In this document: one piece after another, positions 1,883-44,862 of the stretch | How the letters are laid out: every line of letters begins with the position of its first letter | Numbering within the stretch: the first letter of the stretch is position 1 | From: an uncultured Chloroflexia bacterium | GTDB lineage: Bacteria; Chloroflexota; Chloroflexia; Thermomicrobiales; UBA6265 | Length of the DNA stretch: 64,000 nt | Assembly: GCA_963762985.1 (NCBI GenBank) | Contig: CAVXMK010000014.1 | Location: 282,625-346,624 of the forward strand | Direction: 5' to 3' | Notes under the pieces: generated by a model | The model's database searches: none | What the model was told of the DNA's origin: nothing | The model's input: the letters and a program-made list of their open reading frames with translations, nothing else | Translations under genes and position numbers: made by a program

Positions 1883-2007
1883 GATGGTGGCCAGCCACCG
1901 CGAGCGCCTGCTCGCCGGGAAGAGAAGGAGTGCGGCCTGGGGGACGAGACGGCCCGGGTAGACCGCGGCGTCGTCTCCGTTGCCTCGGGCGGGGGAGCGC
2001 ATTTCAG

Positions 2008-3792: not shown

Positions 3793-3857
3793 GCCGACCG
3801 CGAGGCCATCGCCCCGCGCCTGCTCGATGACATAGCAGGAAGGCGACAGATCTGCCA

Positions 3858-3887
3858 CGAGGCCCGGGGAATGTTCCCCGGGCCTCG
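3858..3887 (+). terminator. Terminator-like hairpin shared with the paralog
   Basis: CGAGGCCCGGGGA-ATGT-TCCCCGGGCCTCG, a perfect 13-bp stem with no T-tract. An almost identical hairpin follows the paralog at 9097-9125. Confidence 0.6.
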
Positions 3888-3954
3888 GCGTGTTCGCGGA
3901 CAGGAGCCGTCGCGTTCAGCTCAATGGAATTCCGGGCCAGACTTCTGCCTGTCA

Positions 3955-4150
3955 GCAGCCCTTCTCCCCGCGCACTTGACAGGGGAGGTATCGAGTTGCC
4001 GGCGGCTGGCCCTCACCCCAACCGCCGAATGACCCTCACCCCAACCCCTCTCCCATTGCGATGGGAGAGGGGCTTTCGACGCTGAGTACCGGCGTCATAT
4101 AGCAATTACCTCTCCCTGTCAGCCCCGCGCACGGGAGAAGGGAGGGTTGA
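3955..4150. repeat. Mosaic of GC-rich palindromic intergenic elements
   Basis: Inverted copies of CCCTTCTCCC..TGACAGGG(G)AG(A)GGTA sit at about 3960-3992 and 4106-4141. Between them is the hairpin CCCTCTCCCA-TTGCGA-TGGGAGAGGG, part of a short variant of the CCCTCACCCCAACC element seen elsewhere. Confidence 0.6.
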
Positions 4151-4349: not shown

Positions 4350-5858
4350 GTAAGAGTTCAGACCAAGGCAATTTGGGGAGATGGTCGTGGGGCGCGCAGG
4401 AGCGCGAGAAACTCCTCGACCGGGTCGAGGTCGCGCAGGGCCCAGGTGGCCACCAGCGAGTGCAAGAGCATGCGGGTGGTGCTGCCCGGCCCCGAGCGGG
4501 TGCCGCCGCTAATCTTGCGCGCCACCACCAGCGGGCGCAGGGCGCGCTCGGCGGCATTGTTGGTCGGGGGCACGGCCGGATCGGCGACGAAGGTGAACAA
4601 CTCGGCCTGATAGCGTTCGACGCGGGCGCACAGCACCGCCTGCGGGGTATCGGCCGGTTGCGCCCGGCAGTGGGCGACGAGCTCGGCCTGGAAGCGGTCG
4701 CGCGCCCGCTCGCGCAGGATGCCGTTCGTGCCCGCCGCCGTCGCCTCCGCCGCCCAGGCCACGGCGCGGTCGTAGACATCGCGCACCCCCGCCGCCCACG
4801 CCGCCACCCCCGGGTCGTCGGGATGGGCCAGGACCAGGTCATGGATGTCGCGCCACAGGTGCGCCCAGCACCGCTGCTGGACCCGCTCCAGCCGGTCGTA
4901 GGCCCCGAAAAAGTCGCTGACCACCACGCCCGTGCCCATCTCGCCCAGGAGGTCCTGCGCCACCGCCCCGGCGCGACTGCGCGCGAAGTGAAACACCTGG
5001 ATCGAGGGCGTGGTCAGCGTCCACACCCAGCCGGTGCGGCCGTTCTCGCGCCAACTCGTCTCATCGAGATGGACGACCGGGCTGGCCCGCGCCTCCCCCA
5101 GCAGCGCCTCGTAGGCCGGGCGTCCGGCCCGCGCCGCCTCCGCCAGCAGCGCGCTCAGCTCCCCCACCGACAGCCGCAGCCCCCAGACCCGCTGCAGCAG
5201 CCATTGCACCTGGGCCAGCGGCAGCCGCAGTTTGGTGCGCAGCGTCGCGACCCACGCCGCCACCGACCACCCCACCCGCCGGTGGGCGCCGGCCTGCTCC
5301 CCCAGATCCGGCATCGTCCCCCGGCTGCGCGTCCCGCAGCGGCGGCAGGTCCGCTCCAGCACCCGGTGCTCGACGACCGCAGCCCGCACCGGCGGCACCT
5401 CGATGAGCTGGCGGCGCCGCACCACCCGTCCCCGTGCCAGCGGGGCGGCACAGGCCGGACAGACCCTCGGCGCGTGCAGCACGATGCGGTCCGGACGCTC
5501 ACGGCGGCGCCCCGGCACGGGACGGCGCGGTCGCCGCGGCCGGCGCTGCTCGCGCACGACGACATTGGCCTTGACCCACGCGGGCGGACGTTTGGGCGGG
5601 GGAGCTGCGGGCGGCGACGGCCTCGCGCCCGCCTGGCCCCCCGCCGCGTGGTCGTCACCGCGCAGCGCGGCCACCTCGGCCCGCAGCGCGGCGTTCTCCG
5701 CGCTCAGTGCCTGCACCTGGGCCTGCAACTGCACCACCAGCTCCGCCAGTGCGTCGTAGCTGAGCCGCTCCGTGCCGCGGGTCATCTCCCGCCCCTTGCC
5801 CGTCCCTGCCGTGAGAACCGGCATTCTCCCACAATTTCGGGTCAGTCTGAACTCTTAC
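4350..5858 (-). mobile_element. IS66-family insertion sequence, single-ORF type, apparently intact (1509 bp)
   Basis: Perfect 14-bp terminal inverted repeats GTAAGAGTTCAGAC (4350-4363 and reverse complement 5845-5858). Subterminal similarity (..AATT.G.GGGAG), an 8-bp TSD and one complete transposase ORF. Confidence 0.9.
4358..5824 (-). CDS. IS66-family transposase
   Basis: N-terminal leucine-zipper-like LQAQVQALSAENAALRAEVAALR and zinc-finger CPACAAPL..CRRCG. Also HLDETSW, VVSDFFGAYD, QRCWAHLWRD and PPTNNAAERALRPLVVARK, all hallmark IS66 motifs recalled from memory. Confidence 0.9.
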   Translation of the reverse strand: MPVLTAGTGKGREMTRGTERLSYDALAELVVQLQAQVQALSAENAALRAEVAALRGDDHAAGGQAGARPSPPAAPPPKRPPAWVKANVVVREQRRPRRPRRPVPGRRRERPDRIVLHAPRVCPACAAPLARGRVVRRRQLIEVPPVRAAVVEHRVLERTCRRCGTRSRGTMPDLGEQAGAHRRVGWSVAAWVATLRTKLRLPLAQVQWLLQRVWGLRLSVGELSALLAEAARAGRPAYEALLGEARASPVVHLDETSWRENGRTGWVWTLTTPSIQVFHFARSRAGAVAQDLLGEMGTGVVVSDFFGAYDRLERVQQRCWAHLWRDIHDLVLAHPDDPGVAAWAAGVRDVYDRAVAWAAEATAAGTNGILRERARDRFQAELVAHCRAQPADTPQAVLCARVERYQAELFTFVADPAVPPTNNAAERALRPLVVARKISGGTRSGPGSTTRMLLHSLVATWALRDLDPVEEFLALLRAPRPSPQIALV

Positions 5859-6034: not shown

Positions 6035-9000
6035 ATGGACAACGCTGCATTCGACCGGTTGGCGCGACTGCTGGGGAGCGGCGCGTCGCGGCGCCACACG
6101 TTGCGCGCGCTGATCACCGCGGCCCTGGTCGGGGGCACGGCCGACGAGCTGCTGGCCAAAGACAAGAAGAACCGCGCCAAGAACCGCAAGCAGGGCAACG
6201 ACCGGGACGGCAACAACGACAAAGACAAAGATAAGAACAAGGACCGGCGCAATGGCCGTGGCGGCCAGGCCAATGCCGAAGCGAAAAAGAAAAATCAGAA
6301 CAAGAACAAGCAGAAGCGCAAGAAGAAAAAGAAGAAGAACAGCAACGGCGGCAATAGCGGCGGCAACAGTTGCGCCGGAACCCCGCTGCAGCCCGGGCAG
6401 GACTTCGTCGATTGCGATTTCTCCGACGCCAATCTGCGCGGGGAGAATCTCAAAGGCTCCCTCTTCAAGAATGTCGACCTCACCGATGCCGATCTCTGCG
6501 GCGCCGATCTGGAATCGTCCAGCTTCGCCGACACTACACTGGTCGACGCCAATCTCACTGACGTCAACCTCGACTCGTCGTCGCACAGCAAGGGCGACTT
6601 CTCCGGCGCCAACCTCACCAACGCCACCTTCCGTGTCGCCACCTTCAGCAAGGTCGACTTCTCGGGAGCCGACCTCACCGGCGCCGACTTCACCGGCGCC
6701 ACCCTGGATGACACCGACTTCGCCGGCGCCGTCTTCTGCCGCACCATCCATCCCAACGGCAACGTCGACAACCGCGACTGCGACATCTGCGACAACGAGT
6801 GCGGTCTCTGCGAAGACTGCGACGACGAGGACTGCACCCCGCCCGACTGCTGCCCGAACCCGGAGGGACCAGGCGGCATCTGCGTCAATACCGACACCGA
6901 CCCGCTCAACTGCGGCGGCTGTGACGCCGCCTGCTTCACCAACCTGTCCAACGCCTGCGTCGATGGCGAGTGCGTCTGCGGCAACGAGCCGGAGTGCTCC
7001 GGTGGCGAGACCTGCTGCCGTGGCGAGGGCGGTGGCGCCACCCGCTGTATCGACACGGACACCGATCCCCTGCACTGCGGCGCCTGCGACGAGGCGTGCC
7101 TGATCCCCCTCAACCCATGCCTCTCCGTCGAGTGTCAGGGCGGTCAGTGCGTCGAAGTCGGCGCCGCGGACGGGACGCCCTGCGAACTCGAGGGCGACCC
7201 TGGCGTCTGCTGCGCCGCCGGCAGCTCCGTCACCTGCGTCGTCGGGACCGAATGCTGCTCCAACGCCCAGTGCGACTCCGGCGAGGCCTGCTGCGAAGGG
7301 CAGTGCATCGACGTCGAGGACGACCCCAACAACTGTGGCGGCTGCGACGTCATCTGCCTGACCCCGACAAACCCGTGCCTCACCAACGAGTGCATCGAGG
7401 GCGGATGCGTAGACGGGACGCTCTCGGACGGCACGGAGTGCGCGTTCGTTGACGACACCGGCGTCTGCTGCGCCTCGGGTGGGACCAGCACCTGCGTCTT
7501 CGGCGCTGAGTGCTGCACCGATGCGCAGTGCGGCACGGGCCAATCATGCTGTGGCGGCCAGTGTCTGAACACCCAGACCGACTTCGATCGCTGCGGGTCA
7601 TGCACCAACCAATGCCCGGCTACCAAGGCCGACGCCTGCGTTGGCGGGGACTGTGTCTGCGGCGAGGAGCCGGAGTGCAACGGCAACCAGACCTGTTGCC
7701 CCGGCGAGGGCGGCAATCCGGCCTCCTGCCTCAACCTCAATAACGACACCCTCAACTGCGGCGCCTGCGGATTCGCCTGCCTGATCCCAACGAACCCGTG
7801 CCTCGCCGTCGAGTGCCAGGAGGGCGGATGCGTCGAGGTGCCCGTACTGAATGGCTCGGCCTGCGCGGTGGGCGAAGTGGGGGGCATCTGCTGCGCCTCG
7901 GGCGAGACGTCCGCCTGCATCGTGGGGGCGGAATGCTGCGACAGCTCGGTCTGTGAGGCGACCGAAGCCTGCTGCGAAAATCAGTGCATCGACGTTCAGG
8001 ACAACTTCGACAACTGCGGTGAGTGCGGCAACAGTTGCACGGACTCGGTGAATCAATGTTTCCACCGCGACTGTGTCCAGGGCGAGTGCCAAACCCTCCC
8101 CGACGAGGATGGCGAGCCGTGCTTCGCGGGCGAAGAGGGCATCTGCTGCGCCTCGACCCCAACCACCTCCATCTGCATCGGCGGCGGCCAGTGCTGCACC
8201 GACCTCGAATGCCCGGAGGGCGATAGCTGCTGCGATAACACCTGCTTCGAGACCAGCTCCGATTTCGACCACTGCGGGGGCTGTGACGGCTGCGACCCCG
8301 ACTTGGCAGACACCTGCGTCGAGGGCACGTGCGTCTGCGGGACCACGGGAGCCGCATGCGGGGCCGGCGAGACCTGCTGCAACGGCCAGTGCGTCGACAC
8401 CGACACCGACACCGACAACTGCGGCACGTGCGGCAACGCCTGCGATCCCCCGTTGAACTCGTGCAATACCGTCCTGTGCCTCGAAGGTACGTGCAACAAC
8501 TTCGCGGACCCCGACGGCACGATCTGCGTGGAGGGTCAGGACGAGGGCGTCTGCTGCTTCGACGACAACGCCGCCGTCTGCCTGGCGGGCGCCCAGTGCT
8601 GCTCCGACTCCGGATGCGACGTCACCGAAGCCTGCTGCGACAACCAGTGCGTCAACCCCAATACCGACTTCGACCACTGCGGCATTTGCACGAACGCCTG
8701 CATAGAGGGGAAGGCCGACGCCTGCTTCAACGGCCAGTGCGTCTGCGGGTCCGAGTTCCAATGCTCGGAAACCGAGACCTGCTGCAACGGCCAGTGCGTG
8801 GACACCAGCAATGATCTTGAGAACTGCGGCTCCTGTGGCGAGACATGTGGTGCAAACGAAACGTGCGTCGAGAGCGGGTGCGTTTGCCCGGGCATCCCCT
8901 GCGAGGGTCAATGTCTGGCGGAAGGTCCCGACGTCTGCTGCCTCCTCGCCGACTGCGAGACTCGCCTCTGCTATTTGCTTCTCGGCTGCAACGGCAACGT

Positions 9001-9088
9001 CTGCGAATACCAACAGCTCGCCGACAACACCGATTGCGGCTTCGGCGGTACGTGTGAAGGCGGCGTGTGCATCGGGCAGTCTGAATAA
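6035..9088 (+). CDS. Giant secreted Cys-rich protein: RR leader, about 75-aa polybasic tail, pentapeptide repeats, about 10 Stig1-like Cys modules
   Basis: Leader MDNAAFDRLARLLGSGASRRHTLRALITAALVGG. Tail is KDKKNRAKNRKQG...KKKNQNKNKQKRKKKKKKNSNGG. The pentapeptide block is collinear with the 2008 paralog. The motif D-x-x-(N/H)-C-G-x-C-x-x-x-C occurs about 12 times. GGGGGAG precedes the ATG. Confidence 0.9.
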   Translation: MDNAAFDRLARLLGSGASRRHTLRALITAALVGGTADELLAKDKKNRAKNRKQGNDRDGNNDKDKDKNKDRRNGRGGQANAEAKKKNQNKNKQKRKKKKKKNSNGGNSGGNSCAGTPLQPGQDFVDCDFSDANLRGENLKGSLFKNVDLTDADLCGADLESSSFADTTLVDANLTDVNLDSSSHSKGDFSGANLTNATFRVATFSKVDFSGADLTGADFTGATLDDTDFAGAVFCRTIHPNGNVDNRDCDICDNECGLCEDCDDEDCTPPDCCPNPEGPGGICVNTDTDPLNCGGCDAACFTNLSNACVDGECVCGNEPECSGGETCCRGEGGGATRCIDTDTDPLHCGACDEACLIPLNPCLSVECQGGQCVEVGAADGTPCELEGDPGVCCAAGSSVTCVVGTECCSNAQCDSGEACCEGQCIDVEDDPNNCGGCDVICLTPTNPCLTNECIEGGCVDGTLSDGTECAFVDDTGVCCASGGTSTCVFGAECCTDAQCGTGQSCCGGQCLNTQTDFDRCGSCTNQCPATKADACVGGDCVCGEEPECNGNQTCCPGEGGNPASCLNLNNDTLNCGACGFACLIPTNPCLAVECQEGGCVEVPVLNGSACAVGEVGGICCASGETSACIVGAECCDSSVCEATEACCENQCIDVQDNFDNCGECGNSCTDSVNQCFHRDCVQGECQTLPDEDGEPCFAGEEGICCASTPTTSICIGGGQCCTDLECPEGDSCCDNTCFETSSDFDHCGGCDGCDPDLADTCVEGTCVCGTTGAACGAGETCCNGQCVDTDTDTDNCGTCGNACDPPLNSCNTVLCLEGTCNNFADPDGTICVEGQDEGVCCFDDNAAVCLAGAQCCSDSGCDVTEACCDNQCVNPNTDFDHCGICTNACIEGKADACFNGQCVCGSEFQCSETETCCNGQCVDTSNDLENCGSCGETCGANETCVESGCVCPGIPCEGQCLAEGPDVCCLLADCETRLCYLLLGCNGNVCEYQQLADNTDCGFGGTCEGGVCIGQSE

Positions 9089-9096
9089 CTCTCCAT

Positions 9097-9125
9097 CGAG
9101 GCCCGGGAATGTTTCCCGGGCCTCG
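9097..9125 (+). terminator. Terminator-like hairpin, paralog copy
   Basis: CGAGGCCCGGGAA-TGT-TTCCCGGGCCTCG, 9 nt after the stop. Near-identical to 3858-3887. Confidence 0.6.
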
Positions 9126-9212
9126 CTGCGTGAGTCGGGCGGTTCGGCATCGAGGACCTATCCAGCTCTTCATTGGAAGGGGACAGAAGGGCCAAAGCCC
9201 GCGCGCGGACAT

Positions 9213-9250
9213 CGTGTCATGCTGAGCGAAGCGAAGCATCTCGGCTCATG
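9213..9250. repeat. Half copy of the GTCATGCTGAGC...GCGAAGCATCTCGG palindromic element
   Basis: GTGTCATGCTGAGCGAAGCGAAGCATCTCGGCTC. Full palindromic copies are at 26829-26919 and 54568-54658. Confidence 0.65.
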
Positions 9251-9957
9251 GCCCCGCCCGTTCGCTGATGTCCAGATTCCCCCGGCTTTTCCTCCAGAGT
9301 GACACAACGCGGCACGACGCTGTAAGTAACTTCGGCGTACGTACGTCCAATATTTCTGAGGGTGTCCTATTTTGGCCTCCTCAATCCGTCTTTAGAGGTA
9401 GAGGGGGCAGCACACCGCGCCGGATCCCGTCGGCCCCCGGCGCCATCTGCCCCTGGCCCGCGCCTGACGCCCCAGGCGCGGTGCCCGCCGCGGTCCCCCG
9501 CACCCCGCCCCGAGATCGGCCATCTCGCTCCGGGCTCGCGGGCTTCCCCGCGCGGCCTGTCCGCTATCCGCGTCGACACGACCCTGCGCTGACCGTGCAG
9601 CACACCGGCACGACCGATCCTCCGCCAGCTCATCTCCGGCGTCGGCCGCACCCCCTGTGCGGCCCCGCACTCCCCGGCCTGTCGCGTACAGGCGCCGCCC
9701 AGGGCGTTGGGCAGCGGGGGGGTCCGGCGGTCCTGGCGGGGCCGGCGGCCCCGAACTGCATCCGAGGTCTGCCCCTCCTGGGCCCCGCTCCGCATGGAGT
9801 GGACCCAAGGGGGATCTCGTCATGCCCGCAAAACCTCACCCGAGCTCCGCCATCCCCTGGCCCGAACGGGAATGATGAGCGGCGGGTTGACGCCCACCGG
9901 CAGACTCCTTACTCTCCAGCACCATGCACCCCATCCACGCGGCAATACCACCCCCCA

Positions 9958-10020
9958 TCACCCTATGACCCCATCACCCTGTCACCCTAACACCCTAACA
10001 CCCTATCACCCTCCACCCCC
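9958..10020. repeat. Tandem 8-nt array (CACCCTNN, about 8 units) abutting a start codon
   Basis: CACCCTAT GACCCCAT CACCCTGT CACCCTAA CACCCTAA CACCCTAT CACCCTCC ACCCCC, then ATG at 10021. Confidence 0.75.
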
Positions 10021-10692
10021 ATGACTGACCGCCCCCCCCTCCAACCCGGCCTCGATGCCCTCGCCACCGTCGAGGCCGCCGCCGTCACCCTCCTCGGCGT
10101 CGCCCGCCAACGCGGCCTCGATGGCGACCTCGACGTCGGCGAAGACGCCGTCGTCGTCCTTCGCGCCGCCCAGTGCCAGGACGAGCAGCACTACCACGCT
10201 CTGCTCGCCGCCGGCGGCCTCCCCGTCGCGGAAAACTTCACCATCCCGGAGGAAACCGTCACCGACCGCACCCTGCTCCTCGTCGCCATCCTCGAGCTGA
10301 AGGCCATCGGCATCGCCGGCTACATGGCCCTCGCCCGCGCCTGGGCCGCGCGGCGCGAGACGGAGCAGGTCGAAATCGCCTACGCCATGGGCATCGTCGA
10401 GGCCCAGCACCTGACGCTGGCCCACGCCCTCGTCGGCGTCACCCCCGCCAACGACCGCGCCTTCGCCCGCTGGCTCTTCGCTGACCCCGCCGAAGCCCTC
10501 GCCGCCCTGCAAGCCCTCGCTTTGCTGGAAGGCCCCGGCGACCCCGTCCCCTTCCCCGGCCCCCTCGACCGCGTCTGCCGCGGCGTCTTCGGTCTCACCC
10601 CGGAGACCACCGCCACCATGACCCTGCCCCGACCCCCGGTTGGAGAAGCCGCCGTGCCCCAGGGACCGCGGGTGATAACCGGGGACGGCTAA
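10021..10692 (+). CDS. Hypothetical protein, possibly ferritin-like four-helix domain
   Basis: Codon-plausible 223-aa ORF. Helical segments (LLLVAILELKAIGIAGYMALA, IAYAMGIVEAQHLTLAHAL) loosely resemble ferritin-like/DUF4439-type proteins. No SD is visible because the octamer array sits directly upstream. Confidence 0.45.
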   Translation: MTDRPPLQPGLDALATVEAAAVTLLGVARQRGLDGDLDVGEDAVVVLRAAQCQDEQHYHALLAAGGLPVAENFTIPEETVTDRTLLLVAILELKAIGIAGYMALARAWAARRETEQVEIAYAMGIVEAQHLTLAHALVGVTPANDRAFARWLFADPAEALAALQALALLEGPGDPVPFPGPLDRVCRGVFGLTPETTATMTLPRPPVGEAAVPQGPRVITGDG

Positions 10693-10764: not shown

Positions 10765-10826
10765 GCCCCCCTCGCCCTGCGCACAGGGCCGGGTGCCCTC
10801 TGGGCGGCGGGGTTGGGGGGTGAGGC
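10765..10826. repeat. Copy of the AAGCCCC..GGGCCGGGTGCCCTCTGGGCGGCGG..GGGGTGAGG element
   Basis: Core GGGTGCCCTCTGGGCGGCGG at 10791-10810. The same core occurs at 15668, 19729 and 57207, and in reverse complement at about 57106-57125. Confidence 0.7.
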
Positions 10827-10971
10827 CGATCCACCGGTCCCGAAGTCATCACCAGCGGAGACTGATTCCGCCGCCCCTATTGTGACGACGCGTTCCGCCC
10901 CCTACACTCTTGAACGAAAGAAGGCAGGACTCAGCGACTCGCGGCCGGGTCTCGCGGGGGTGGCTGGCGGC

Positions 10972-11715
10972 ATGACCCAACGCGGCGACTTCGACGACCA
11001 GAACGGCATTACCCGGGCCGACGAGCCCGGCCGCTTCGCGCCGCGCCGCCTGCTCGGCGGGCGCCCGCTCTCCATGTACGCCGTGCTCATCGCCGGCGTC
11101 GGCGTGCTGGCGGCCCTGCTCGGCATCCTCATCGTCACCACCCGCGGCGACGAACCCCCGCCCATCACCTGCCTGCCGGTCACCCTGGAAGAAGGCGAAT
11201 CCCTCGTCCGCGCCGGGGAGGTCGGCCGTATCAACGTCCTTACCGAGCGCGGCAAACCGCAGACCGGCCCCATCGCCGTCACCCTCGATCTGAACAACGG
11301 CAGTTGCCGCGAGCTGCCGAAAGGCGTCGCCGCCCAGCGCGATCTCTACGTCGCCGTCGGCGTCGTCACCGTCCACAACCAGACCCAACCGGCCGACAAC
11401 CGCGTGCGCATCGTCTGGGAAGAGCAGGCCAATATCCCCCTGCCCCTGCTCGCCACTAACACCCCCACCCCACTCCCCACGAATACCCCGCTCCCCACCG
11501 CGACACCGGCGCCCCCAACCCCGACGCCCATTCCGCCCACCCCCACCCCCGAGCCACCGACTCCGACACCCGAGCCCCCGACACCAACCCCGGAACCTCC
11601 GACCCCGACCCCCGAACCCCCGCCCGCCACGCCGATGGCGGCGGTCGACGCCTCCACCCCCGAGGCGACGCCCAGGCGCACGGCCGAAGAGGCCACGCCG
11701 CAGGGTGAGGGGTGA
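10972..11715 (+). CDS. Membrane-anchored protein with Pro/Thr-rich C-terminal linker
   Basis: ATG at 10972 inside track ORF 10813. One TM segment (MYAVLIAGVGVLAALLGILIV), a small extracytoplasmic domain, then a (PTPTPEP)n low-complexity region. Confidence 0.6.
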   Translation: MTQRGDFDDQNGITRADEPGRFAPRRLLGGRPLSMYAVLIAGVGVLAALLGILIVTTRGDEPPPITCLPVTLEEGESLVRAGEVGRINVLTERGKPQTGPIAVTLDLNNGSCRELPKGVAAQRDLYVAVGVVTVHNQTQPADNRVRIVWEEQANIPLPLLATNTPTPLPTNTPLPTATPAPPTPTPIPPTPTPEPPTPTPEPPTPTPEPPTPTPEPPPATPMAAVDASTPEATPRRTAEEATPQGEG

Positions 11716-11799: not shown

Positions 11800-12138
11800 T
11801 CAATCCATCGTGCCGGGCACGCAGAATCCCCCGTCGCAGACGAGATCGTCTTCGCCGTCGCAGCAATCGCGCGTATCGAGGCAGCGCTTGCCCTGGGTGC
11901 TGCACCGGCAGCGGCCCTTCTTCTTGCCCCGGCGCGTGCGGCAGCGCCCGGAGCAGCATTGTCCGTTCCGCTTGCAGCGGCTGGTGACGCCCCGACACCC
12001 GTTGCTTTGCGCGGTCGATGGCGTCGCGTCGAGCGCACCGCCAGCGGCCGAGGCCACGGCCACGGCAGCGAGCATCTCTCGCCGGGTCCGCGCTCGAGCC
12101 AGCGCGGTCAGCATCGCGTCGAACCGGTCATTGCTCAC
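11800..12138 (-). CDS. Small secreted knottin-like Cys-rich protein with FD..L..RR leader
   Basis: GTG at 12138 is preceded by AGGAGG (12145-12150) at 6-nt spacing. Leader VSNDRFDAMLTALARARTRREMLAAVAVASAAGG. Cys pattern C-x6-C-x5-CC-x3-C-x10-C with a basic loop RTRRGKKKGR. Confidence 0.7.
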   Translation of the reverse strand: MSNDRFDAMLTALARARTRREMLAAVAVASAAGGALDATPSTAQSNGCRGVTSRCKRNGQCCSGRCRTRRGKKKGRCRCSTQGKRCLDTRDCCDGEDDLVCDGGFCVPGTMD

Positions 12139-12392
12139 GTGAGACCTCCTCGCCAGGCGACTCCGGTAACGAAAAACCAGCCAATTTTGCCCCAATCCCC
12201 AAATTGGGCTCTATTATGACTTGCTGAAACGCTGCGTAAGTGTCACTATGCCACTGACCCGCGTATCGCCGCGCATCGGCCCCATCTGGGCCGGAGGAGC
12301 AGTGGAGGTAAACAGCGCCAGGTGGGCGCGAATTGCTACGCCGTTCGCGGGTAAACACGACACCCCTCGTGGTGGAGGGAGGGAGCAGCACG

Positions 12393-12641
12393 ATGGACAA
12401 CCGCTATCCGGATCGACTTGCCACCCCGCGGCTGCCGCGCCGTCCCACGCGCCGCGCGCTGATCGCCGGCGCGGCCGGGCTCCTGCTCGCCGCGGGTTCC
12501 GCCGCCGGGTTCCTCATCGAGGATGCCGAGGCGCGCCGCGTTCGCAAGCGGCACCGCAACCGCAACCACAATCGAAGCCAGGAAAACAGTATCAGCATCC
12601 CCGGCCAGCCTGGGGAACCCGGCGAGGATGGCGAGCCGTAG
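12393..12641 (+). CDS. Small RR-leader protein with polybasic tail and short collagen-like end
   Basis: ATG preceded by GGAGGGAGGGAG. RRPTRRALIAGAAGLLLAAG leader, AEA|RRVRKRHRNRNHNRSQEN tail, C-terminal GQPGEPGEDGEP. Confidence 0.65.
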   Translation: MDNRYPDRLATPRLPRRPTRRALIAGAAGLLLAAGSAAGFLIEDAEARRVRKRHRNRNHNRSQENSISIPGQPGEPGEDGEP

Positions 12642-12711
12642 CGCGGCTGGGGTGACAGGCGCTGGGTAGCCGGCCATGGCCCGGACAGCGCAGGAGCAAG
12701 GGGGCGTAACC

Positions 12712-13815
12712 ATGGATGAGCAGCACGCGGACGACACAGCGCAGCGCGGCACGACCCGACGCGGCATCATCGCCGGCACCGCCGCCGCCCTCGTCGGGGC
12801 CATCGGGGCCACGGTGACCGGCGAGCCATCGTCCACTCAGGCGGCCAAGGGCCGCAATCGCCGCCGTCGCGACCGGGACCGGAATCGCAAAGAGAGCAAC
12901 GCCAACGCCACCGGAACCGGCGATGACGCGGGCAAGTCCGAGGCGAACGGTGAGGCCTCCCTCACCGCGGGCGAGACCGGCTCAAGCAACGCCGGGCAGG
13001 ACGGCACCTCCGGTGACGGAGGCCCTACCGGTCAATCCGGAACCAGCGGCGCCGGCGAAGGCGGTGCCAGCGGCTCCAGCACGCCTGGGTCCGGTGGCTC
13101 CGGTGGATCGAGCGCTGCCGGCGAGGGCGGATCGGCCGGAGCGGCGGGCGCGGGCGGAAGCAGCGACGGGGAGAGCGGAGCCGCCGGCGCGGCGGGCACG
13201 AGCGGCGTCGGTCAGGACGGCGCTCCCGGAACGGACGGCCAGGGCGGCGCCGGCGAAGGCGGTCAAGGGACGCCAAGCGGCGCGGGCCAGGCGGGGACCG
13301 GCGGCCAAGGCGAAGTCAGCACCGTCGTCCAGAGCGGCTCCGGTGAAGGTGGCGAGCCGGGCGCAACCGGCGCACCGGGCGCCAGCCAGACCAGCACCGG
13401 TGACAGCGGCACGGGCGAGGCCGGAGCCACCGGTCAACCTGGTGAGAGCCAAAGCAGCACCGGGGCCAGCGGCACGAGCCAGAGCGGCTCGTCCCAGAGC
13501 AGCACCGGCACCGCAGGCACGAGCCAAAGCAGCACCGGCCAGGGCGGCAGCGGCGCCAGCGGCTCCAGCCAGGGCAGCAGCGGCTCAGCGGGGCTGGGCG
13601 GAACCAGCCAGAGCGGCGCGAGCCAGGGCAGCTCCGGCTCCAGTGGCCAGGCGGGACAGGGCGGGCAATCGGGGACGAGCAACGGCAGCAGCACCAGCCA
13701 GAGCGGTGTCGGCACGCCCGGCGAGCCGGGCCAATCAGGCGACGCTGGCTCCAGCCAAGCGGGCGAACCCGGCCAATCGGGCAGCCAGGCGGGCGAATCC
13801 GGCACATCGGGCTAG
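12712..13815 (+). CDS. RR-leader protein with polybasic tail and about 290 aa of Gly/Ser/Thr/Ala/Gln-rich, partly G-x-x periodic sequence
   Basis: ATG at 12712 inside track ORF 12676. TTRRGIIAGTAAALVGAIGA leader and QAA|KGRNRRRRDRDRNRKESN tail. Stretches such as GEPGATGAPGAS, GEAGATGQPGES and GTPGEPGQSGDAGS follow. Confidence 0.65.
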   Translation: MDEQHADDTAQRGTTRRGIIAGTAAALVGAIGATVTGEPSSTQAAKGRNRRRRDRDRNRKESNANATGTGDDAGKSEANGEASLTAGETGSSNAGQDGTSGDGGPTGQSGTSGAGEGGASGSSTPGSGGSGGSSAAGEGGSAGAAGAGGSSDGESGAAGAAGTSGVGQDGAPGTDGQGGAGEGGQGTPSGAGQAGTGGQGEVSTVVQSGSGEGGEPGATGAPGASQTSTGDSGTGEAGATGQPGESQSSTGASGTSQSGSSQSSTGTAGTSQSSTGQGGSGASGSSQGSSGSAGLGGTSQSGASQGSSGSSGQAGQGGQSGTSNGSSTSQSGVGTPGEPGQSGDAGSSQAGEPGQSGSQAGESGTSG

Positions 13816-13910
13816 ACCTCGCGGCCAGGACCTGTCATAGTCCGCACCAGGGAGAAACGGGGACAACCGAAATCGGGCGCAGGGGCATCGGGATGGGGGG
13901 GATCACCGAC

Positions 13911-14201
13911 ATGGACGCGTGCGACGCGGACATCGAGCAGAGTCAGCGCACACGGCCAGGCAACTCGCGCCGCGCCGTCATCGCGGCCACGGCGGCGGCG
14001 TTGCTGGGGACTATGGGCGTTGTCGCCACCAGTGACATGACCGACGCCAGACGACGCGGCCGTAAGAGCAAGAATCGCAACAACAACCAGAGCAACGCCG
14101 TCAGCGTTGGCCAGGGTGGACCGGGCGGCGCCGGCGGCGCCGGTGGCAATGTCATCGTCAACTGCGACCCCGGCTTCACGAATTGCGAGATCGTTGATTG
14201 A
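13911..14201 (+). CDS. Small RR-leader protein with polybasic tail, Gly run and C-terminal two-Cys motif
   Basis: NSRRAVIAATAAALLG leader, TDA|RRRGRKSKNRNNNQSN tail, then GQGGPGGAGGAGGNVIVNCDPGFTNCEIVD. An alternative ATG at 13893 is equally possible. Confidence 0.6.
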   Translation: MDACDADIEQSQRTRPGNSRRAVIAATAAALLGTMGVVATSDMTDARRRGRKSKNRNNNQSNAVSVGQGGPGGAGGAGGNVIVNCDPGFTNCEIVD

Positions 14202-14248
14202 CCGCGCGGCCACGATGCCGTGACCCGCGCCAGACAAGGAACACCACG

Positions 14249-14677
14249 ATGAGCACCCGCACGCACCAACCCAACCCGCGGCCATCCGCCGCGCCGAGCA
14301 TCACCCGGCGCGGCCTCGTCGTTGCCGCGTCATCCAGTCTCGTCGCCCTGCTGGGTATTGCTGCCGATTCCGCAGGGACCGAAGCCCGGCGGCGGCGCGG
14401 CCGCAAAGGCAAAGGCCGCCACTCGTCCAGCTCGGCCACGGGCGGCTCCGGTGGCAGCGCCGGGCATGGCGGGACCAGCATCCCAGGGCTCCCAGGCAGC
14501 GGCGGATCGAACGGCTCCAGCGGTTCGTCCGGAACGAGCAACCCAGGCAGTCCGGGGGGCGGCGGCACCAACCCCGGCGGTGGGGGGACCCCTGGCGGTG
14601 CCCAGACCGGCACGCCCGGCGCGAACGGTCAATCGGACACCACCCCGACCGTTGGCACCCCGGGCGCTAGCGGCTGA
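14249..14677 (+). CDS. Small RR-leader protein with polybasic tail and Gly/Ser/Pro-rich body
   Basis: ATG at 14249 preceded by AAGGAA. ITRRGLVVAASSSLVALLG leader, TEA|RRRRGRKGKGRHSSSS tail, then GGSGGSAGHGGTSIPGLPGSGGSNGSSGSSGTSNPGSPGGGG... Confidence 0.65.
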   Translation: MSTRTHQPNPRPSAAPSITRRGLVVAASSSLVALLGIAADSAGTEARRRRGRKGKGRHSSSSATGGSGGSAGHGGTSIPGLPGSGGSNGSSGSSGTSNPGSPGGGGTNPGGGGTPGGAQTGTPGANGQSDTTPTVGTPGASG

Positions 14678-14856: not shown

Positions 14857-15333
14857 TCATCCAATCTCGAACGCAAACTCCCACTGCGGACTCTCGGCCG
14901 TGCTGCTCTTCGCCGCCGTCAGGCTCATCTGCCCGCTGGCCCCGGCGTAATCCCCGGTCCCCCCGGTGATGGCGAAGGCCCCCGTACCGTCGTCGTAAAA
15001 CGGCCCGGTCACCACCAACGAGCCGTGCTCCAGCGTGTTCGTGAACGTGCAGTCCCACGATTCGCCCACCACGGTGCGCATGCACGACCCATGGCTGCGC
15101 CCGACCAGATTGACGTTCTGATCGTCGTACAACTCGTTACTGAAAACCAGCGTGTCGCCCACCGAGTCGCCCTCGTCGCTGAGGTCGACCACCTGTTCAT
15201 CCGTGACGTGCTCGATCAAGACCAGCGTCTCCTGCGCCGCCGCGGGCACACCGCCGCGCACGCTGGTGAAGTAGCCCGCGAGCAGCAGGGCAAGCGTGGC
15301 GGCAACGGCGAGGAGCGCGCTATTCCGGGCCAT
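14857..15333 (-). CDS. Secreted dirigent / allene-oxide-cyclase-like beta-barrel protein
   Basis: ATG at 15333 preceded by GGGAGGGGAGG. Sec-type signal MARNSALLAVAATLALLLAG. Pattern D..GDS.GD.LVF...LYD....NLVG...G.C......W.C..T..L..GSL...G......G..AITGGTGDYAGA.G is typical of this fold, recalled from memory. Confidence 0.6.
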   Translation of the reverse strand: MARNSALLAVAATLALLLAGYFTSVRGGVPAAAQETLVLIEHVTDEQVVDLSDEGDSVGDTLVFSNELYDDQNVNLVGRSHGSCMRTVVGESWDCTFTNTLEHGSLVVTGPFYDDGTGAFAITGGTGDYAGASGQMSLTAAKSSTAESPQWEFAFEIG

Positions 15334-15539
15334 GATGACCTCCCCTCCCAGCCCAGGCTGGGAACGCATGCGCCGCGGACCTGGCACCGGTCGAATCTGC
15401 ACCGGGGTCCGGTGGCGTGCGCATCGTACGCCCAACATTGGTGCTGTCAAGTGGCGAATGGATTGGTAGTTCCATCCCGGAACCGATCTCGCCCCGACAA
15501 CGCCCCCTCATTCCCGGCTCCTCTCCCCTGGGACAACGG

Positions 15540-15841: not shown

Positions 15842-16912
15842 TTACGCCGGACGGCTGTCCCAGCGGAAAAAACGCACCGCGATCACCATGGCGATGACGA
15901 ACGTCGCTAGCAGTGCCAGCAGATCGGTCCAGATGGCCGCCAGCCCGTTGCCGAACGTCATCGCCTCGCGCAACGCGTCGACCAGGTACGTCAGCGGCAA
16001 CACCCGCGTGATCGGTTGCAGCCAGACCGGGGCGTTCTCCATGCTGAAGAAAATCCCCGACAGGAACATCATGGGGAACGTCACCAGATTGGCGTAGCTG
16101 GCGGCGGTCTCGGCATTGGGCGCAATCCCGGAGATGGCAAACCCGATCGCGAGAAACGCCAACGCACCGGCGATGATTGCCACCAGCACGACGAGCAGAT
16201 TCCCGCGCAGATGCAGCCCGAACAGTCCCCACGCCATCCCTATGAGAGTCACCGCCTGCAAGCCAGCGATCAGCAACTGCGACAGCACCCGCGCCAGGAT
16301 GAACGAGGTCAGCGGAAACGGCGTCACCCGAATACGCCGCAGTATGCCCCGCTCGCGGTACGTGACAAACGCCGTGGCCAGCCCGATCACCCCGGAGTTC
16401 ATCAGGCTCATGGCCAGGATGCCGGGGGCGAATACATCCATGAACGACACTTCTTGCGCCGTCACCGGCCGCTGCTCGATGGCCAGCGGCGGCGGCCCCC
16501 CCGCCACGTCGAGCAGCGTCTGCCGCACCGCCCCGACCGCGATTTGCGCGGTCGGGCCCACCGTCGCGTTGTAATAGAGCACCACCGTGGGGAAGCCCTG
16601 TGCGTTCTGGTCCGCCCCGAACACGGCCACCACCCCGCGGTTGCCATCCTCCAACGCCCGCAGCTCGTCCGCCTCCTCCCCCTCGGCAACGCTAAAGCTC
16701 GGGTTCTCCCGCAGCGCGGCGACGACCCCCTCCCGATACGCTGACTCCGGACCCGCCACCCCGACATCGAACTCGACGCTCTGGCCCCGGCCGAAGATGA
16801 CGCCAAAAATCGCGATGAACAACGCCGGAAACGCCAGATTCCAGAAGAGCGCCGCGCGGTTGCGCAGACTCATCAGCACATTGGCGCGGACCATGGCGAA
16901 CAGGGGCGTCAT
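15842..16912 (-). CDS. ABC-2 type exporter permease
   Basis: Six-TM ABC-2 architecture with a large first extracytoplasmic loop (NRAALFWNLAFPALFIAIFGVIFG...). The start ATG at 16912 lies 1 nt after the ATPase stop. ATG at 16927 is also possible. Confidence 0.8.
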   Translation of the reverse strand: MTPLFAMVRANVLMSLRNRAALFWNLAFPALFIAIFGVIFGRGQSVEFDVGVAGPESAYREGVVAALRENPSFSVAEGEEADELRALEDGNRGVVAVFGADQNAQGFPTVVLYYNATVGPTAQIAVGAVRQTLLDVAGGPPPLAIEQRPVTAQEVSFMDVFAPGILAMSLMNSGVIGLATAFVTYRERGILRRIRVTPFPLTSFILARVLSQLLIAGLQAVTLIGMAWGLFGLHLRGNLLVVLVAIIAGALAFLAIGFAISGIAPNAETAASYANLVTFPMMFLSGIFFSMENAPVWLQPITRVLPLTYLVDALREAMTFGNGLAAIWTDLLALLATFVIAMVIAVRFFRWDSRPA

Positions 16913-16913
16913 G

Positions 16914-17909
16914 TCAATCAGCCACATCGTCGCCGTCGTAGCGATGCCCCGTGCGCGCCAGAAAGACATCTTCCAGGGTGGCTTGGGCGGTGCTGAGCCC
17001 TGACAGGGTAGCGTTCTGGCGGCTGGCCAGGCCGAGCAGGTCGATCAACGTGGCCTGGGCGTCAGTGGTGCGCAGTGCGATCGCGTCCCGGCCATCCCGA
17101 GCCTGGACCTCAGCAGAGACAACCCCGGTGAGTGCTTCCAACCGCGCCAGGGCGAACTCCCCTCCTTCCACCACCGCCCGCACCGACGCATCCGCCCCCA
17201 GATCGAGGATCAGCTCCCGCGGCGTGTCGCAGGCCACTACCCGCCCCCGGTCCATGATGGCGATGCGGTCGCAGAGTTGCTCGGCCTCCTCCATGTAGTG
17301 GGTGGTCAGTACCACGGTGGCGCCGGCATCGCGAATGTCGCGGATCGTCTGCCACAGGGTCCGCCGCGCGGCAGGGTCCAGCCCGGTGGTCGGCTCGTCG
17401 AAGAAGACGATGCGCGGGGTGTTGACCAGGGCCAGCGCCACCGCCAGCCGCTGCTGCTGACCCCCGGAGAGGGTGTTGATGCGAGAGCCTCCTTTCTCCA
17501 CCAGCCCGACCAGGGCCAGCAGCGATTCGACCCGCTCCGAGGAGGCATCGGCTCGGTAGAGCGAGGCAAACAGCCTCAGAATCTCGGCGCAGGTGAGGTA
17601 GTCGAACAGCGCCGTCGTCTGCAACTGCACCCCCATAACCTGGTGTACCCGCTCCGGCTCGCGCACCGGATCGAACCCCGCCACCTGCATCGTCCCGCTG
17701 TCCGGGGCGCGTAACCCCTCCAGCATCTCGAGCGTCGTCGTTTTACCGGCCCCGTTCGGGCCGAGGATGCCGAAGATTTCGCCCGGCCAGACGACGAGGT
17801 CGAGCCCGGCCACGGCGGTCGTCCCTCCGTAGCGCTTCACCACGTCGCGGGCGGCGATGATCGGTTCGTCGCCGCGCCCCCCGGTTGGCGGGGACGTGTC
17901 GCGGGTCAT
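16914..17909 (-). CDS. ABC transporter ATP-binding protein (DrrA-like)
   Basis: Walker A GPNGAGKTT, signature LSGGQQQRL, Walker B IVFFDEPTTGLD. Start chosen at MTRDTSPP, since the long upstream extension of the track ORF is not protein-like. Confidence 0.9.
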   Translation of the reverse strand: MTRDTSPPTGGRGDEPIIAARDVVKRYGGTTAVAGLDLVVWPGEIFGILGPNGAGKTTTLEMLEGLRAPDSGTMQVAGFDPVREPERVHQVMGVQLQTTALFDYLTCAEILRLFASLYRADASSERVESLLALVGLVEKGGSRINTLSGGQQQRLAVALALVNTPRIVFFDEPTTGLDPAARRTLWQTIRDIRDAGATVVLTTHYMEEAEQLCDRIAIMDRGRVVACDTPRELILDLGADASVRAVVEGGEFALARLEALTGVVSAEVQARDGRDAIALRTTDAQATLIDLLGLASRQNATLSGLSTAQATLEDVFLARTGHRYDGDDVAD

Positions 17910-18104
17910 TGGGGCGTGCGGCGCGTGCAGGTGCAGGGTCGGTGCGCTCCTCGTGGCCCGGTGCGTGCGGGCAGTACTCTTGGTCGCGACTATAGCGGCC
18001 GGGCGGTCGTGATGACGAATGGCACGGCTTTTGCCGCAATCGTCCCGAACGCCGATGCGATGCCGGGACCAACGAGCAATGGGTCTGATGAAGGAGTTGT
18101 CCTG

Positions 18105-19622
18105 ATGCCAGAATCTCGAACGGGAGCAGCGCCGGGTGGCAATCGGCAGCAAGATCCGCGCTGGCGAGCGCTGCTGGTCTCGCTCGCGGTGGTGCTGGTC
18201 GTCGCGTCGGTCCCGGCCGCCGCCTGGGCCATCCCCGCGCTCGTCCCGCCCACGCAGGAGGAGAACGCGGATGAGACGGGTGCCGGCGAGGTAATCGCCG
18301 ACGGGCGCGCACGGTTGCCCCGCGGCGAGATCGTCTGGACGATTCGCCAGGTCGACGTGCCGAGCGGCGAGGGCGTCGCGGTGGAGGAGTTCCCGCTCGG
18401 TTTCATCCTGGTCGAAGAGGGCACGGTCGCCCTGCGCGCCGAAGACGACGAGACCCCGACCGAGCTCACCACGGGCGAGGCCGCTTTCCTCCCAGATCGC
18501 AAATCCGGCTCGCTGGCGAGCGTGGGGGCTGACGCGGCGAGTCTCGTTGAGGTTGCCCTCGTTTCGCGGCGGGACGCCGAATCCGCAACCGAAGCTGATG
18601 CCGGCGAGGAGACCGGCGTCGTCGTGGGAGAGCCCTTCCCGGCTCCTGCGGGCGCGGCCCCATCTGCAGCCACGCCGACGCCGGAAGGCGAGGAGCAGGC
18701 GGCCGCCTCGTTCGAGATGGCATTGGTCCGCAACACGCTGAGCGGCCAGGACGAGGCCACCATCCCGGTCTCGGGCTCCGGAGCGCCGGTGTTCTACCTG
18801 ACCACGGACGGCACGGCCCAGTTGCAGGCAGGCGAACAGGTCGTCGATCTCGCCGCGGGGCAGTTTGCCCTGCTCGCCGGTGAGGTGCAGGTCCGCGCCG
18901 CCACCGATGCGCCGGCGACGTTCGTGGTGGCGTCAATCGACGAAGAGGCAGAGGAACGAGAACGCGGCGACCGCGCGGAGCGGACGGAGCGTCAACGCGA
19001 ACCGCGCGAACGCGCCGGTGGCGGAGGCGGCGGCCGTCAGGGCAATGCTTCGTCAGGCGGCCAGGGCCAGTCGGATCGTGGCGCGCGGCGCGCGGCGCGG
19101 CAGGCCGCCCGCCAGGCGCAAGGTGGCGGTGGCGGTGGTGGTGGCCGCGGCGGCCAGTCCCAGCAACAGGGTACGGGCGACACAGGCGGCGCCCCGGTGA
19201 CTGGCGGCGCCGATGCGACCGCCACCGTGCCCGCCCCCGCGGGAACGCCGGGCGTCGAGCCGACTCCGGAACCGACCCTGCCCACCGATCCGACTGTTCC
19301 CGCCGACGGCACGCCGCCTGCGGTCGAAACACCACCGGTCGAAACGCCATCAGTGGACGAAACCGCCGTGCCCACGGCCACTGTCCCCGCTGCCGAGACC
19401 CCGACCCCCGAACCGACCGTCCCGGTGGTGCCGACCAACCCGCCGGTGCCGGAGGTCCCCGAGGTCCCGGGTCTGCCGACGGTCCCGGCCGAAGAGACAG
19501 TGGCCGCGGAATCGGTGCCGGCAGCGGAAGCACCCGCGCCGGAGGCAACGCTTCCTGTTGAGGAGGTGCCCGCCGCGCCCGTGGAGGAGGAGCAAGACAC
19601 GGAGTCCGCGCCGGTAGAATAA
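18105..19622 (+). CDS. Signal-anchored hypothetical protein with RGG/Gly-rich and Pro/Thr/Glu/Val-rich low-complexity C-terminal half
   Basis: ATG at 18105 preceded by GAAGGAG. N-terminal RWRALLVSLAVVLVVASVPAAAWA. A folded-looking domain of about 280 aa, then RERGDRAERTERQREPRERAGGGGGG... and PTPEPTVPVVPTNPPVPEVPEVP. Confidence 0.6.
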   Translation: MPESRTGAAPGGNRQQDPRWRALLVSLAVVLVVASVPAAAWAIPALVPPTQEENADETGAGEVIADGRARLPRGEIVWTIRQVDVPSGEGVAVEEFPLGFILVEEGTVALRAEDDETPTELTTGEAAFLPDRKSGSLASVGADAASLVEVALVSRRDAESATEADAGEETGVVVGEPFPAPAGAAPSAATPTPEGEEQAAASFEMALVRNTLSGQDEATIPVSGSGAPVFYLTTDGTAQLQAGEQVVDLAAGQFALLAGEVQVRAATDAPATFVVASIDEEAEERERGDRAERTERQREPRERAGGGGGGRQGNASSGGQGQSDRGARRAARQAARQAQGGGGGGGGRGGQSQQQGTGDTGGAPVTGGADATATVPAPAGTPGVEPTPEPTLPTDPTVPADGTPPAVETPPVETPSVDETAVPTATVPAAETPTPEPTVPVVPTNPPVPEVPEVPGLPTVPAEETVAAESVPAAEAPAPEATLPVEEVPAAPVEEEQDTESAPVE

Positions 19623-35044: not shown

Positions 35045-35107
35045 ACGCCTGCGATACGTAAGGCTGATGAGGAGATGCATCCATCTCAGCTCCACGGAGG
35101 ATCCACC

Positions 35108-44807: not shown

Positions 44808-44862
44808 TCGCGGTTGGAGGCGCCCACGGGCGCCCCGATGTCGGAAGCCTCAGGAGGACATT

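Follow-up and report, generated by a model that had tools for sequence, protein, structure and literature searches.

What role is served by a row of four small, low-complexity proteins that appear to be secreted and match no described system? The question is raised by four genes, here called orf1 to orf4, in a 64,000-nucleotide stretch (hereafter the window, to which all coordinates refer) of contig CAVXMK010000014.1 from an uncultured member of the Thermomicrobiales (Chloroflexota; assembly GCA_963762985.1). An initial reading of the letters alone, hereafter the original prediction, had seen in them an operon for extracellular matrix-, sheath- or coat-like polymers, each protein carrying an 'RR leader' and a cationic 'Arg/Asn-rich tail'. 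We find the two elements to be arranged differently, and the way in which they are joined recurs on unrelated proteins.

All four proteins follow one plan, namely, an MD or MS start, (T/S)RR, an Ala/Gly/Leu-rich stretch, an Arg/Lys/Asn-rich sequence of the RRR type following Ala, and a Gly/Ser/Thr/Pro-rich body. In orf1, the predicted twin-arginine translocation (Tat) signal, with the motif TRRALIAG, covers amino acids (aa) 1-47 and ends in EDAEA; it is followed by the polybasic stretch at aa 48-61 (RRVRKRHRNRNHNR) and then by SQENSISIPGQPGEPGEDGEP. The corresponding signals TRRGIIAG...STQAA of orf2, SRRAVIAA...MTDA of orf3 and TRRGLVVA...GTEA of orf4 lead directly into KGRNRRRRDRDRNRK, RRRGRKSKNRNNN and RRRRGRKGKGR, respectively. 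Over the 60 family sequences from which the export-signal statistics were taken, RR is present in 59 and stands, within a Tat consensus (S/T-R-R-x-F-L-K-like), at the boundary between the N-terminal (n) and hydrophobic (h) regions. The basic run begins 19-31 residues past RR and comprises 10 residues on average, 7.5 of them Lys/Arg, with acidic residues nearly absent; Ala occupies position -1 before it in 52/60 sequences, and a small or aliphatic residue position -3 in 51/60. The h-regions are Ala/Gly-rich, with a best 14-residue Kyte-Doolittle mean of 1.9-2.4, compared to 2.8-3.1 for the Sec-type signal of the dirigent-like neighbour, so that a moderate h-region is combined with an A-x-A-type signal peptidase I site, as is typical of Tat signals. 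The 'RR leader' thus reads as a predicted Tat signal peptide, with Tat dependence being putative, whereas the 'tail' is indeed a cationic segment but is misnamed: because it lies directly after the predicted signal peptidase site with its Ala at -1, it would be the N-terminus of the mature protein, that is, a head. Near this site, none of the four proteins has the Cys of a lipobox, and their C-termini (GEP, GTSG, EIVD and GASG) lack the hydrophobic tail of a sortase-type signal, which argues against covalent anchoring.

The same statistics bear on the possibility that the signal stays uncleaved, its h-region acting as a membrane anchor, with the polybasic stretch next to the membrane on its outer side and the Gly-rich chain extending away from the cell; this would be a variant of the surface-coat idea with a covalent membrane tether. 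Uncleaved Tat-inserted signal anchors exist, as in Rieske proteins; 8 of the 60 sequences have no Ala at -1, and the helix in the AlphaFold2 model runs without a break over residues 20-51, into the basic stretch. However, the constraint on positions -1 and -3 resembles selection for a signal peptidase I site and the h-regions, rich in Ala and Gly, are only moderately hydrophobic, making this arrangement rather improbable.

The junction is not restricted to the four short proteins. At least five larger secreted proteins of the window carry it (Table 1), indicating that the unit of Tat signal, Ala and polybasic run is portable. In the longest of them, the pentapeptide-repeat and Cys-rich protein, ~60 residues of K/R/N/D stand behind the signal, and in three of the loci used for comparison (L013, L014 and L016), the module heads ~350-aa Cys-rich proteins, with Lys/Arg/Gln runs of ~50 residues after the Tat signal. 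Four other Tat-type proteins of the window, namely, the product of 23835-24377, a Ferritin_2 protein, a beta-lactamase-like protein and a solute-binding protein, have no such run; taken together with the larger carriers, they indicate that the run is neither a general trait of Tat substrates here nor peculiar to orf1-orf4. Furthermore, the disulfide-rich nature of several passengers implies a final location of the polybasic stretch outside the cytoplasm. Judged from these sequences, the portability of the module is the main new point of this work, and the N-terminal module itself is undescribed; it also lends indirect support to the 'cationic anchor' of the original prediction. Most of the larger module proteins, as well as the Cys-rich 112-aa protein encoded next to orf1, share an n-region motif, FDxLxRxL...(S/T)RR.

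Portability also matters for the alternative that the polybasic stretch is a pro-region, after which an extracellular trypsin- or kexin-like protease would cut to free C-terminal peptides such as SISIPGQPGEPGEDGEP, with a signalling or other bioactive role. Monoderm bacteria are known to secrete small precursors whose C-terminal peptide is the active part, as in the Phr type, and the C-terminal cores are the best-conserved parts of orf1 and orf3. By contrast, the polybasic stretch also precedes large folded passengers, the length and repetitiveness of orf2 and orf4 set them apart from pheromone precursors, and beside the locus neither a conserved receptor nor an oligopeptide permease partner nor a protease was found. 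Processing of this kind appears very unlikely.

The layout of the locus is largely as first described. The four genes are co-directional, with spacers of 70, 95 and 47 nucleotides (nt), and each has its own Shine-Dalgarno-like purine-rich motif 7-14 nt 5' of the ATG (GGAGG/GAGG, GGGGG, GGGGG and AAGGA for orf1-orf4, respectively). No terminator-like hairpin or site was found from orf1 through orf4, and the genes are probably co-transcribed as one operon. The divergent region facing the knottin-like gene, described as AT-richer, has a GC content of 0.60, falling to 0.51 in its core, against 0.68 for the whole window; it is 84% identical to its counterpart in L001 (see below), with indels of 1-2 nt, and contains no match to the sigma-70 consensus. 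Scans for Rfam families and tRNAs returned none in the window.

Are the open reading frames (ORFs) genes at all? Composition does not decide: the GC content at third codon positions is 0.79-0.82 in the claimed frames, and the value for orf2 (0.82) is matched by those of its antisense frames (0.79-0.84), so that the coding status rests on comparative evidence. The caution expressed originally, that the equally open frames of the opposite strand might be the expressed ones, was reasonable, given that in the frameshifted orf2 equivalent of L022, a long-read contig, one gene caller picked the antisense frame. The comparison was made with L001, a metagenome contig (GCA_033612675.1) that carries the Cys-rich gene, orf1-orf4 and the dirigent-like gene in identical order. 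The ratio of nonsynonymous to synonymous substitution rates (dN/dS) is 0.37 for orf1, 0.32 for orf2, 0.24 for orf3 and 0.47 for orf4. All 11 indels within the genes are multiples of 3 (seven in orf2, of 6 and 3 nt in orf4, none in orf1); those between the genes measure 1, 2, 3 and 4 nt. Substitutions are in excess at third codon positions, with counts at positions 1/2/3 of 9/6/18 in orf1, 84/51/127 in orf2, 8/5/22 in orf3 and 25/22/41 in orf4. Independent gene calls in L001 and L019 yielded the same ORFs, and ~60 sequences of 40-90% identity keep the Tat motif, the junction and the core motifs. By these comparative measures, orf1-orf4 are real genes under purifying selection; the dN/dS values, in-frame indels and third-position excess speak against the opposite strand, and the chance that the ORFs merely reflect high GC content, with an antisense or overlapping frame, or nothing, being the real gene, is negligible.

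Behind the polybasic heads, the four bodies differ. Mature orf1 and orf3 would have 35 and 50 aa and net charges of +3 and +4, whereas mature orf2 would have ~320 aa. The body of the latter (~300 aa) is rich in Gly/Ser/Ala/Thr/Gln (Ser 21%, Pro 3%), acidic (net charge -16) and variable in length, with 15-aa repeats of the SQSSTGASGTSQSGS type, arranged in tandem at 13446-13584, and a C-terminal GTSG that is conserved in L001, L019, L020 and L021. The orf1 core reads N-(R/K)-S-x-E-x-S-I-S-I-P-G-x-P-G-x-P-G-x-x-G-x-P. That of orf3 in the window is N-x-S-x-A-x-S-x-G-x-GG-x-GG-x-GG-x-GG-N-V-I-V, followed by a Cys-x6-Cys loop; in the family it generalizes to N-x-S-x-A-x-S-x-G-x-(GGx)4-(N/D)-V-x-V, and the Cys pair is optional. 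In a 25-sequence alignment of this family, the Gly columns are invariant, as are N59 and S61. The orf4 body is Gly/Ser/Pro/Thr-rich, with conserved GSSGSSGTSNPG and SDTTPT(V/F)GTPGA. The N-x-S directly behind the polybasic run, present in 25/25 orf3-family sequences and not invariant in the orf1 family, has the form of an N-glycosylation sequon; no glycosyltransferase is encoded nearby.

The partial G-x-x periodicity noted in the original prediction exceeds chance, with z-scores for Gly-Gly pairs at lag 3, relative to shuffled mature sequences, of 5.0, 7.0, 4.2 and 2.9 for orf1-orf4, but the longest uninterrupted runs are short (4, 7, 5 and 6 triplets, respectively). AlphaFold2 gave no fold: for orf3 (25-sequence alignment), the predicted local distance difference test score (pLDDT) is 57 and the predicted template modelling score 0.15, with the signal helix alone ordered, and for orf4 (single sequence), pLDDT is 55 and stays below 50 throughout the Gly-rich body. 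As monomers, the four proteins are thus predicted to lack order; an oligomeric assembly of Gly-rich chains of the polyproline-II (PPII) type, which lies beyond the reach of monomer prediction, may nevertheless form.

A homologue search with the leader and the adjoining polybasic region, as suggested in the original prediction, was made with an N-terminal profile of the four proteins and gave 19 matches among 5.8 billion proteins, all of them metagenome orthologues of orf1 or orf3. An exhaustive profile search for the orf3 family found 31 representative clusters among 1.84 billion; orf1 has at least 15 metagenome orthologues (68-94% identity), and orf4 orthologues are present in L001, L003 and L019. 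All named members are annotated as 'hypothetical protein [Thermomicrobiales bacterium]', and the family, as sampled by these searches, is confined to Thermomicrobiales metagenome-assembled genomes (MAGs), from a clade of uncultured soil bacteria. A metagenome scan with the orf1 alignment added one short locus, L018. Searches for orf4 homologues, alone or with a 7-sequence alignment, returned none, which does not imply absence since low-complexity words saturated the candidates; likewise, a scan of genome contigs with the orf3 alignment gave no match, its two peptide patterns having been too narrow, as L009 and L011 of that collection encode orf3-like proteins. Against Pfam, NCBIfam and PHROGs, orf1-orf4 matched no family, and against Protein Data Bank (PDB) sequences they gave linker-type noise only, in agreement with the earlier statement that no described system fits. 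Profile comparison with hhalign between the orf1, orf3 and orf4 families yielded probabilities of 98.7% and 98.2% (the latter for orf4 versus orf3), values possibly inflated by the shared signal peptide and composition; on this profile similarity, the three families are paralogues.

Synteny in related genomes, another check proposed at the outset, is conserved across divergent members. The order orf1-orf2-orf3-orf4 is kept in L001, in L003 (a 48 kb contig that shares the wider neighbourhood), in L019/L020 (GCA_046328335.1), where orf2 has 404 aa, in L021 and in L022, where a fifth gene accompanies the four types. L011 is without orf2, in L004 and L017 the first gene is replaced by a short alternative, and L009 has solely orf3-, short orf1- and orf4-like genes. 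In L012 and L015, both flanks, the Cys-rich and the dirigent-like genes, are kept with nothing between them, showing that orf1-orf4 form a variable island in a conserved backbone. In three loci, the orf2 equivalent is frameshifted or split into two calls (L003 8840-9634, L021 838-1596 and L022 4857-5925), which reflects either assembly error in G-rich repeats or real decay of orf2. A PHROGs scan and a plasmid DNA search, the latter without a match, gave nothing pointing to a phage or plasmid origin of the locus, which we reject.

What, then, might the island do? The reading we prefer, although we put it at slightly less than an even chance, is that the proteins leave the cytoplasm through Tat, are cleaved behind the signal and then, as flexible Gly-rich chains, are tethered electrostatically to the envelope. 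Each precursor, on the strength of the observed motif, would be targeted to Tat, and signal peptidase I would cut after the conserved Ala, as the conservation at -1/-3 suggests. This would expose a head of 10-20 Arg/Lys/Asn residues, with a charge of about +7 to +10, behind which a hydrophilic chain with three-residue Gly periodicity would extend, disordered as a monomer and with PPII/collagen-like propensity. Cationic early-mature regions are incompatible with Sec export. A mature N-terminus of +7 to +10 would accordingly block Sec and make Tat necessary, and Tat would tolerate small, unstructured, hydrophilic cargo; in E. coli, it translocates hydrophilic, unstructured stretches of 100-120 aa (PMC6708511). 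The cationic head would then hold its passenger non-covalently on the anionic envelope, as the portability of the module and its composition suggest. Together, the four kinds of Gly-rich chain could build up a surface or matrix layer that is hydrated and flexible and in which acidic stretches of orf1 and orf2 could pair with the cationic heads of adjacent chains; the fixed gene order and the family-specific conserved cores suggest that the four proteins act together. Of the polymer locus envisaged in the original prediction, the exported low-complexity proteins with a cationic segment each thus stand, whereas a polymerizing matrix, sheath or coat finds no backing: the AlphaFold2 models show no fold, collagen would require longer G-x-x runs, and Pfam scans of the larger ORFs in the 64 kb revealed no cross-linking enzyme.

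Several observations weigh against tethering after Tat export. The Tat-signal hidden Markov models of Pfam and NCBIfam, which are short and low-scoring, gave no match to any of the four proteins at E <= 1, and neither tatA nor tatC is among the scanned proteins of the window. Mature orf2 exceeds in length the unstructured cargo whose passage through the Tat system of E. coli has been demonstrated (PMC6708511). The short cores of orf1 and orf3 are strongly conserved, which points to a specific partner, whereas a generic polymer brush would need none. Finally, the island is accessory, being missing in the close relatives L012 and L015, and therefore is not a core envelope component.

The last point applies equally to a more far-reaching idea, namely, that the four proteins are building blocks of the protein-dominated Thermomicrobia cell wall, exported by Tat and joined outside the cell through short heteromeric Gly-x-x segments (PPII/collagen-like) and through head-to-tail attraction between cationic heads and acidic tails. 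The Tat-polybasic head would then be an envelope-sorting signal of the order that had not been recognized before. The wall protein of Thermomicrobium is rich in Gly, Pro, Glu and Ala and has not been assigned to a gene (PMC2615216); the composition of orf2, high in Ser and low in Pro, matches it poorly, and we consider this idea a long shot.

The gene neighbourhood invites a different explanation, in which the locus encodes secreted competition factors: mature orf1 and orf3, together with the knottin-like cationic peptide, would be bacteriocin-like and exported by Tat, and the ABC-2 transporter would confer self-immunity. The small, cationic precursors have related leaders but differ in their cores, orf3 would carry a C-terminal disulfide loop, and the Cys-rich neighbour combines knottin-type spacing with a weak match to Toxin_29 (E = 0.075). 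Downstream of the island, the window encodes an ABC-2 permease and ATPase, as do L003, L009, L011, L019, L020 and L021, the presence of the island varies among relatives, and haloarchaeal halocins with predicted Tat signals offer a precedent (PMC3387779). However, the polybasic head is also found on large proteins that are not toxin-like, so that its charge is no evidence for membrane attack, and neither orf2, with its 320 aa and net negative charge, nor orf4, with a neutral Gly/Ser/Pro body, looks antimicrobial. The ABC-2 genes are also present in L012, which lacks the island, and are replaced by a prolyl-tRNA synthetase gene in L004, L014 and L015. Neither a PADLOC-type or bacteriocin family match nor a dedicated protease nor an immunity gene was found, and a four-gene order fixed across divergent genomes would be unusual for a bacteriocin cluster. 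Overall, we consider a role in competition unlikely.

Among the flanking genes, that of the 112-aa Cys-rich protein is under constraint (dN/dS 0.35), and the spacings of its product, C-x6-C-x5-CC-x3-C-x10-C and C-x6-C-x5-CC-x7-C-x4-C, lie in tandem; in addition to the match mentioned above, it weakly matches formate_TAT (0.0011). It adjoins the island in L001, L003, L004 and L011, and is conserved more widely than orf1-orf4, being present in L012 and L014-L017, of which L012, L014, L015 and L016 are without the four genes. The dirigent-like gene adjoins the island in L001, L004, L011, L019 and L020 and is likewise present in the island-less L012, L014, L015 and L016. Upstream, the 223-aa protein, which contains two E-x-x-H motifs (DEQHYH and VEAQH) as in di-iron or ferritin-like proteins, was found at 13 loci in MAGs of Chloroflexia, Thermomicrobiales and Sphaerobacteraceae (62-83% identity), its gene always just 3' of one for a family-5 solute-binding protein. 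Between it and the Cys-rich gene, 10813-11715 (+) encodes a membrane-anchored protein whose small extracellular domain is accompanied by a long tail of Pro/Thr containing PTPTPEPP repeats, an arrangement conserved in L003, L007 and L011. The ~930 bp between the genes of the 1017-aa and 223-aa proteins (9089-10020) contain short overlapping Arg/Pro-rich frames and no convincing ORF, Rfam match or tRNA match, and the two pentapeptide-repeat genes are separated by a stretch of GC 0.75 with an IS66-family transposase gene at 4358-5824 (-). Tandem paralogous genes for EamA-family transporters lie at 25941-26801 and 26937-27797. Beside the island in L019, 1612-2961 encodes a 449-aa Tat-signal protein packed with Cys, and 3217-4026 a 269-aa protein with GGDGGNGG repeats at its end. 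Pfam scans of the larger ORFs across the 64 kb revealed no prolyl hydroxylase, glycosyltransferase, sortase, transglutaminase or other cross-linking enzyme, or dedicated protease, and a linked hydroxylase or glycosyltransferase is thus rejected; a sulfotransferase gene lies 22 kb from the locus.

Table 1. Coordinates of the four island genes, their neighbours and the carriers of the Tat-polybasic module in the window
Feature	Position	Strand	Length	Features and basis
Pentapeptide-repeat protein, probable start near 2008	1930-3792	+		Tat-type signal, then MAA followed by PRKKGRGKGKGKGKKKNK
Pentapeptide-repeat and Cys-rich protein	6035-9088	+	1017 aa	Tat-type signal ASRRHTLRALITAALVGG, then LLA followed by KDKKNRAKNRK...KRKKKKKKN; Pfam Pentapeptide, Stig1
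Cytoplasmic-looking protein, upstream backbone marker	10021-10692	+	223 aa	No Pfam family, no signal peptide
Cys-rich protein, Lys/Arg-rich	11800-12138	-	112 aa	Tat-type signal TRREMLAAVAVA; 12 Cys, knottin-like spacings
Divergent intergenic region, Cys-rich gene/orf1	12139-12392			Presumed promoter region and 5' leader
orf1	12393-12641	+	82 aa	ORF and sequence
orf2	12712-13815	+	367 aa	ORF and sequence
orf3	13911-14201	+	96 aa	ORF and sequence
orf4	14249-14677	+	142 aa	ORF and sequence
Dirigent/allene-oxide-cyclase-like barrel protein, secreted	14857-15450	- (convergent)		Pfam Dirigent 6.6e-8, AOC_like 4e-6
ABC-2 permease	15842-16969	-		Pfam
ABC ATPase	16914-18152	-		Pfam
Globin-like protein	35075-35635			Short form of the module
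Three tandem Stig1 (Cys-rich) and NHL-propeller proteins	43539-47345	+		Tat-type signals, then GA followed by RRRKKKRKKGKGKKRR, DA by RQRGGKKRRRKRKKR and EA by KRRRGKKRRKKR

If the tethering reading is correct, a monoderm clade of soil bacteria would retain exported proteins by an undescribed means, a polybasic stretch placed exactly at the Tat cleavage site, and would reuse this module on passengers ranging from 20-residue Gly-rich peptides to 1000-residue Cys-rich proteins. The four proteins would then be natural Tat substrates that lack structure over almost their whole length, which bears on folding proofreading by Tat, and the island would supply concrete candidate genes for the envelope of the Thermomicrobia, which is rich in protein and poorly understood. 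In practice, the module could act as a surface-display tag. Should the reading prove wrong, the locus would still represent a clearly delimited family of small, conserved, secreted proteins that is restricted to one lineage and now annotated only as 'hypothetical'.

Compared to known systems, the four proteins have the hallmarks of Tat substrates, namely, (S/T)RRx(L/I/V), a long n-region, a moderate Ala/Gly-rich h-region and an A-x-A-type site ~25 residues past RR, and, like the unstructured cargo studied in E. coli, they are hydrophilic and devoid of hydrophobic patches (PMC6708511). They depart from other Tat substrates in the run of 7-10 Arg/Lys from position +1 of the mature protein, given that known Sec avoidance involves one or two charges before the cleavage site. 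Cationic surface proteins of monoderm bacteria re-bind anionic wall polymers. The proposed non-covalent retention on an anionic envelope, with neither a lipid nor a sortase anchor, resembles that of such ionically bound proteins (surface display is reviewed in PMC5817068), which, however, use folded modules or a basic overall pI rather than a short polybasic head at a Tat site.

The Gly-rich chains recall several repetitive proteins. With PPII-bundle or polyglycine-II proteins, such as the snow-flea antifreeze protein (bioRxiv 10.1101/2023.11.25.568672), they share a Gly content of ~30%, broken G-x-x runs of 4-7 triplets and few hydrophobic residues, but there is no sequence match to a solved structure, AlphaFold2 gives no bundle, and orf1 and orf3 have one such segment each. 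P-G-x/G-x-P triplets, for example in PGQPGEPGEDGEP and GLPGSGGSNGSSGSSGTS, are reminiscent of bacterial collagen-like proteins (PF01391); collagen is nevertheless rejected, as runs of this length fall far short of a stable triple helix, and neither a Pfam Collagen match at E <= 1 nor a trimerization domain was found. Also rejected were an RTX beta-roll (PF00353), of which orf3 has a single GGAGGNVIV-like unit with no HemolysinCabind match, and PE_PGRS proteins, since there is no PE domain.

Two archaeal systems resemble the island in their use, or predicted use, of the Tat pathway. Haloarchaeal halocins are small, secreted, in part Cys-rich and equipped with predicted Tat signals (PMC3387779), but they show no sequence similarity to the proteins described here and are encoded on plasmids and excised from larger pre-pro-proteins, whereas the island consists of paralogues in fixed order that include long, acidic, Gly/Ser-rich proteins. 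The only described precedent of Tat-dependent subunits of a surface structure is the Tat-fimbriae (tafi) operon of Haloarcula hispanica, in which, as predicted for orf1-orf4, several Tat-exported subunits are encoded per operon, there building one extracellular structure (PMC11821415). Whereas the proteins of the Thermomicrobiales island are bacterial, of low complexity and without a predicted fold, the tafi subunits are archaeal, folded and joined by donor-strand exchange.

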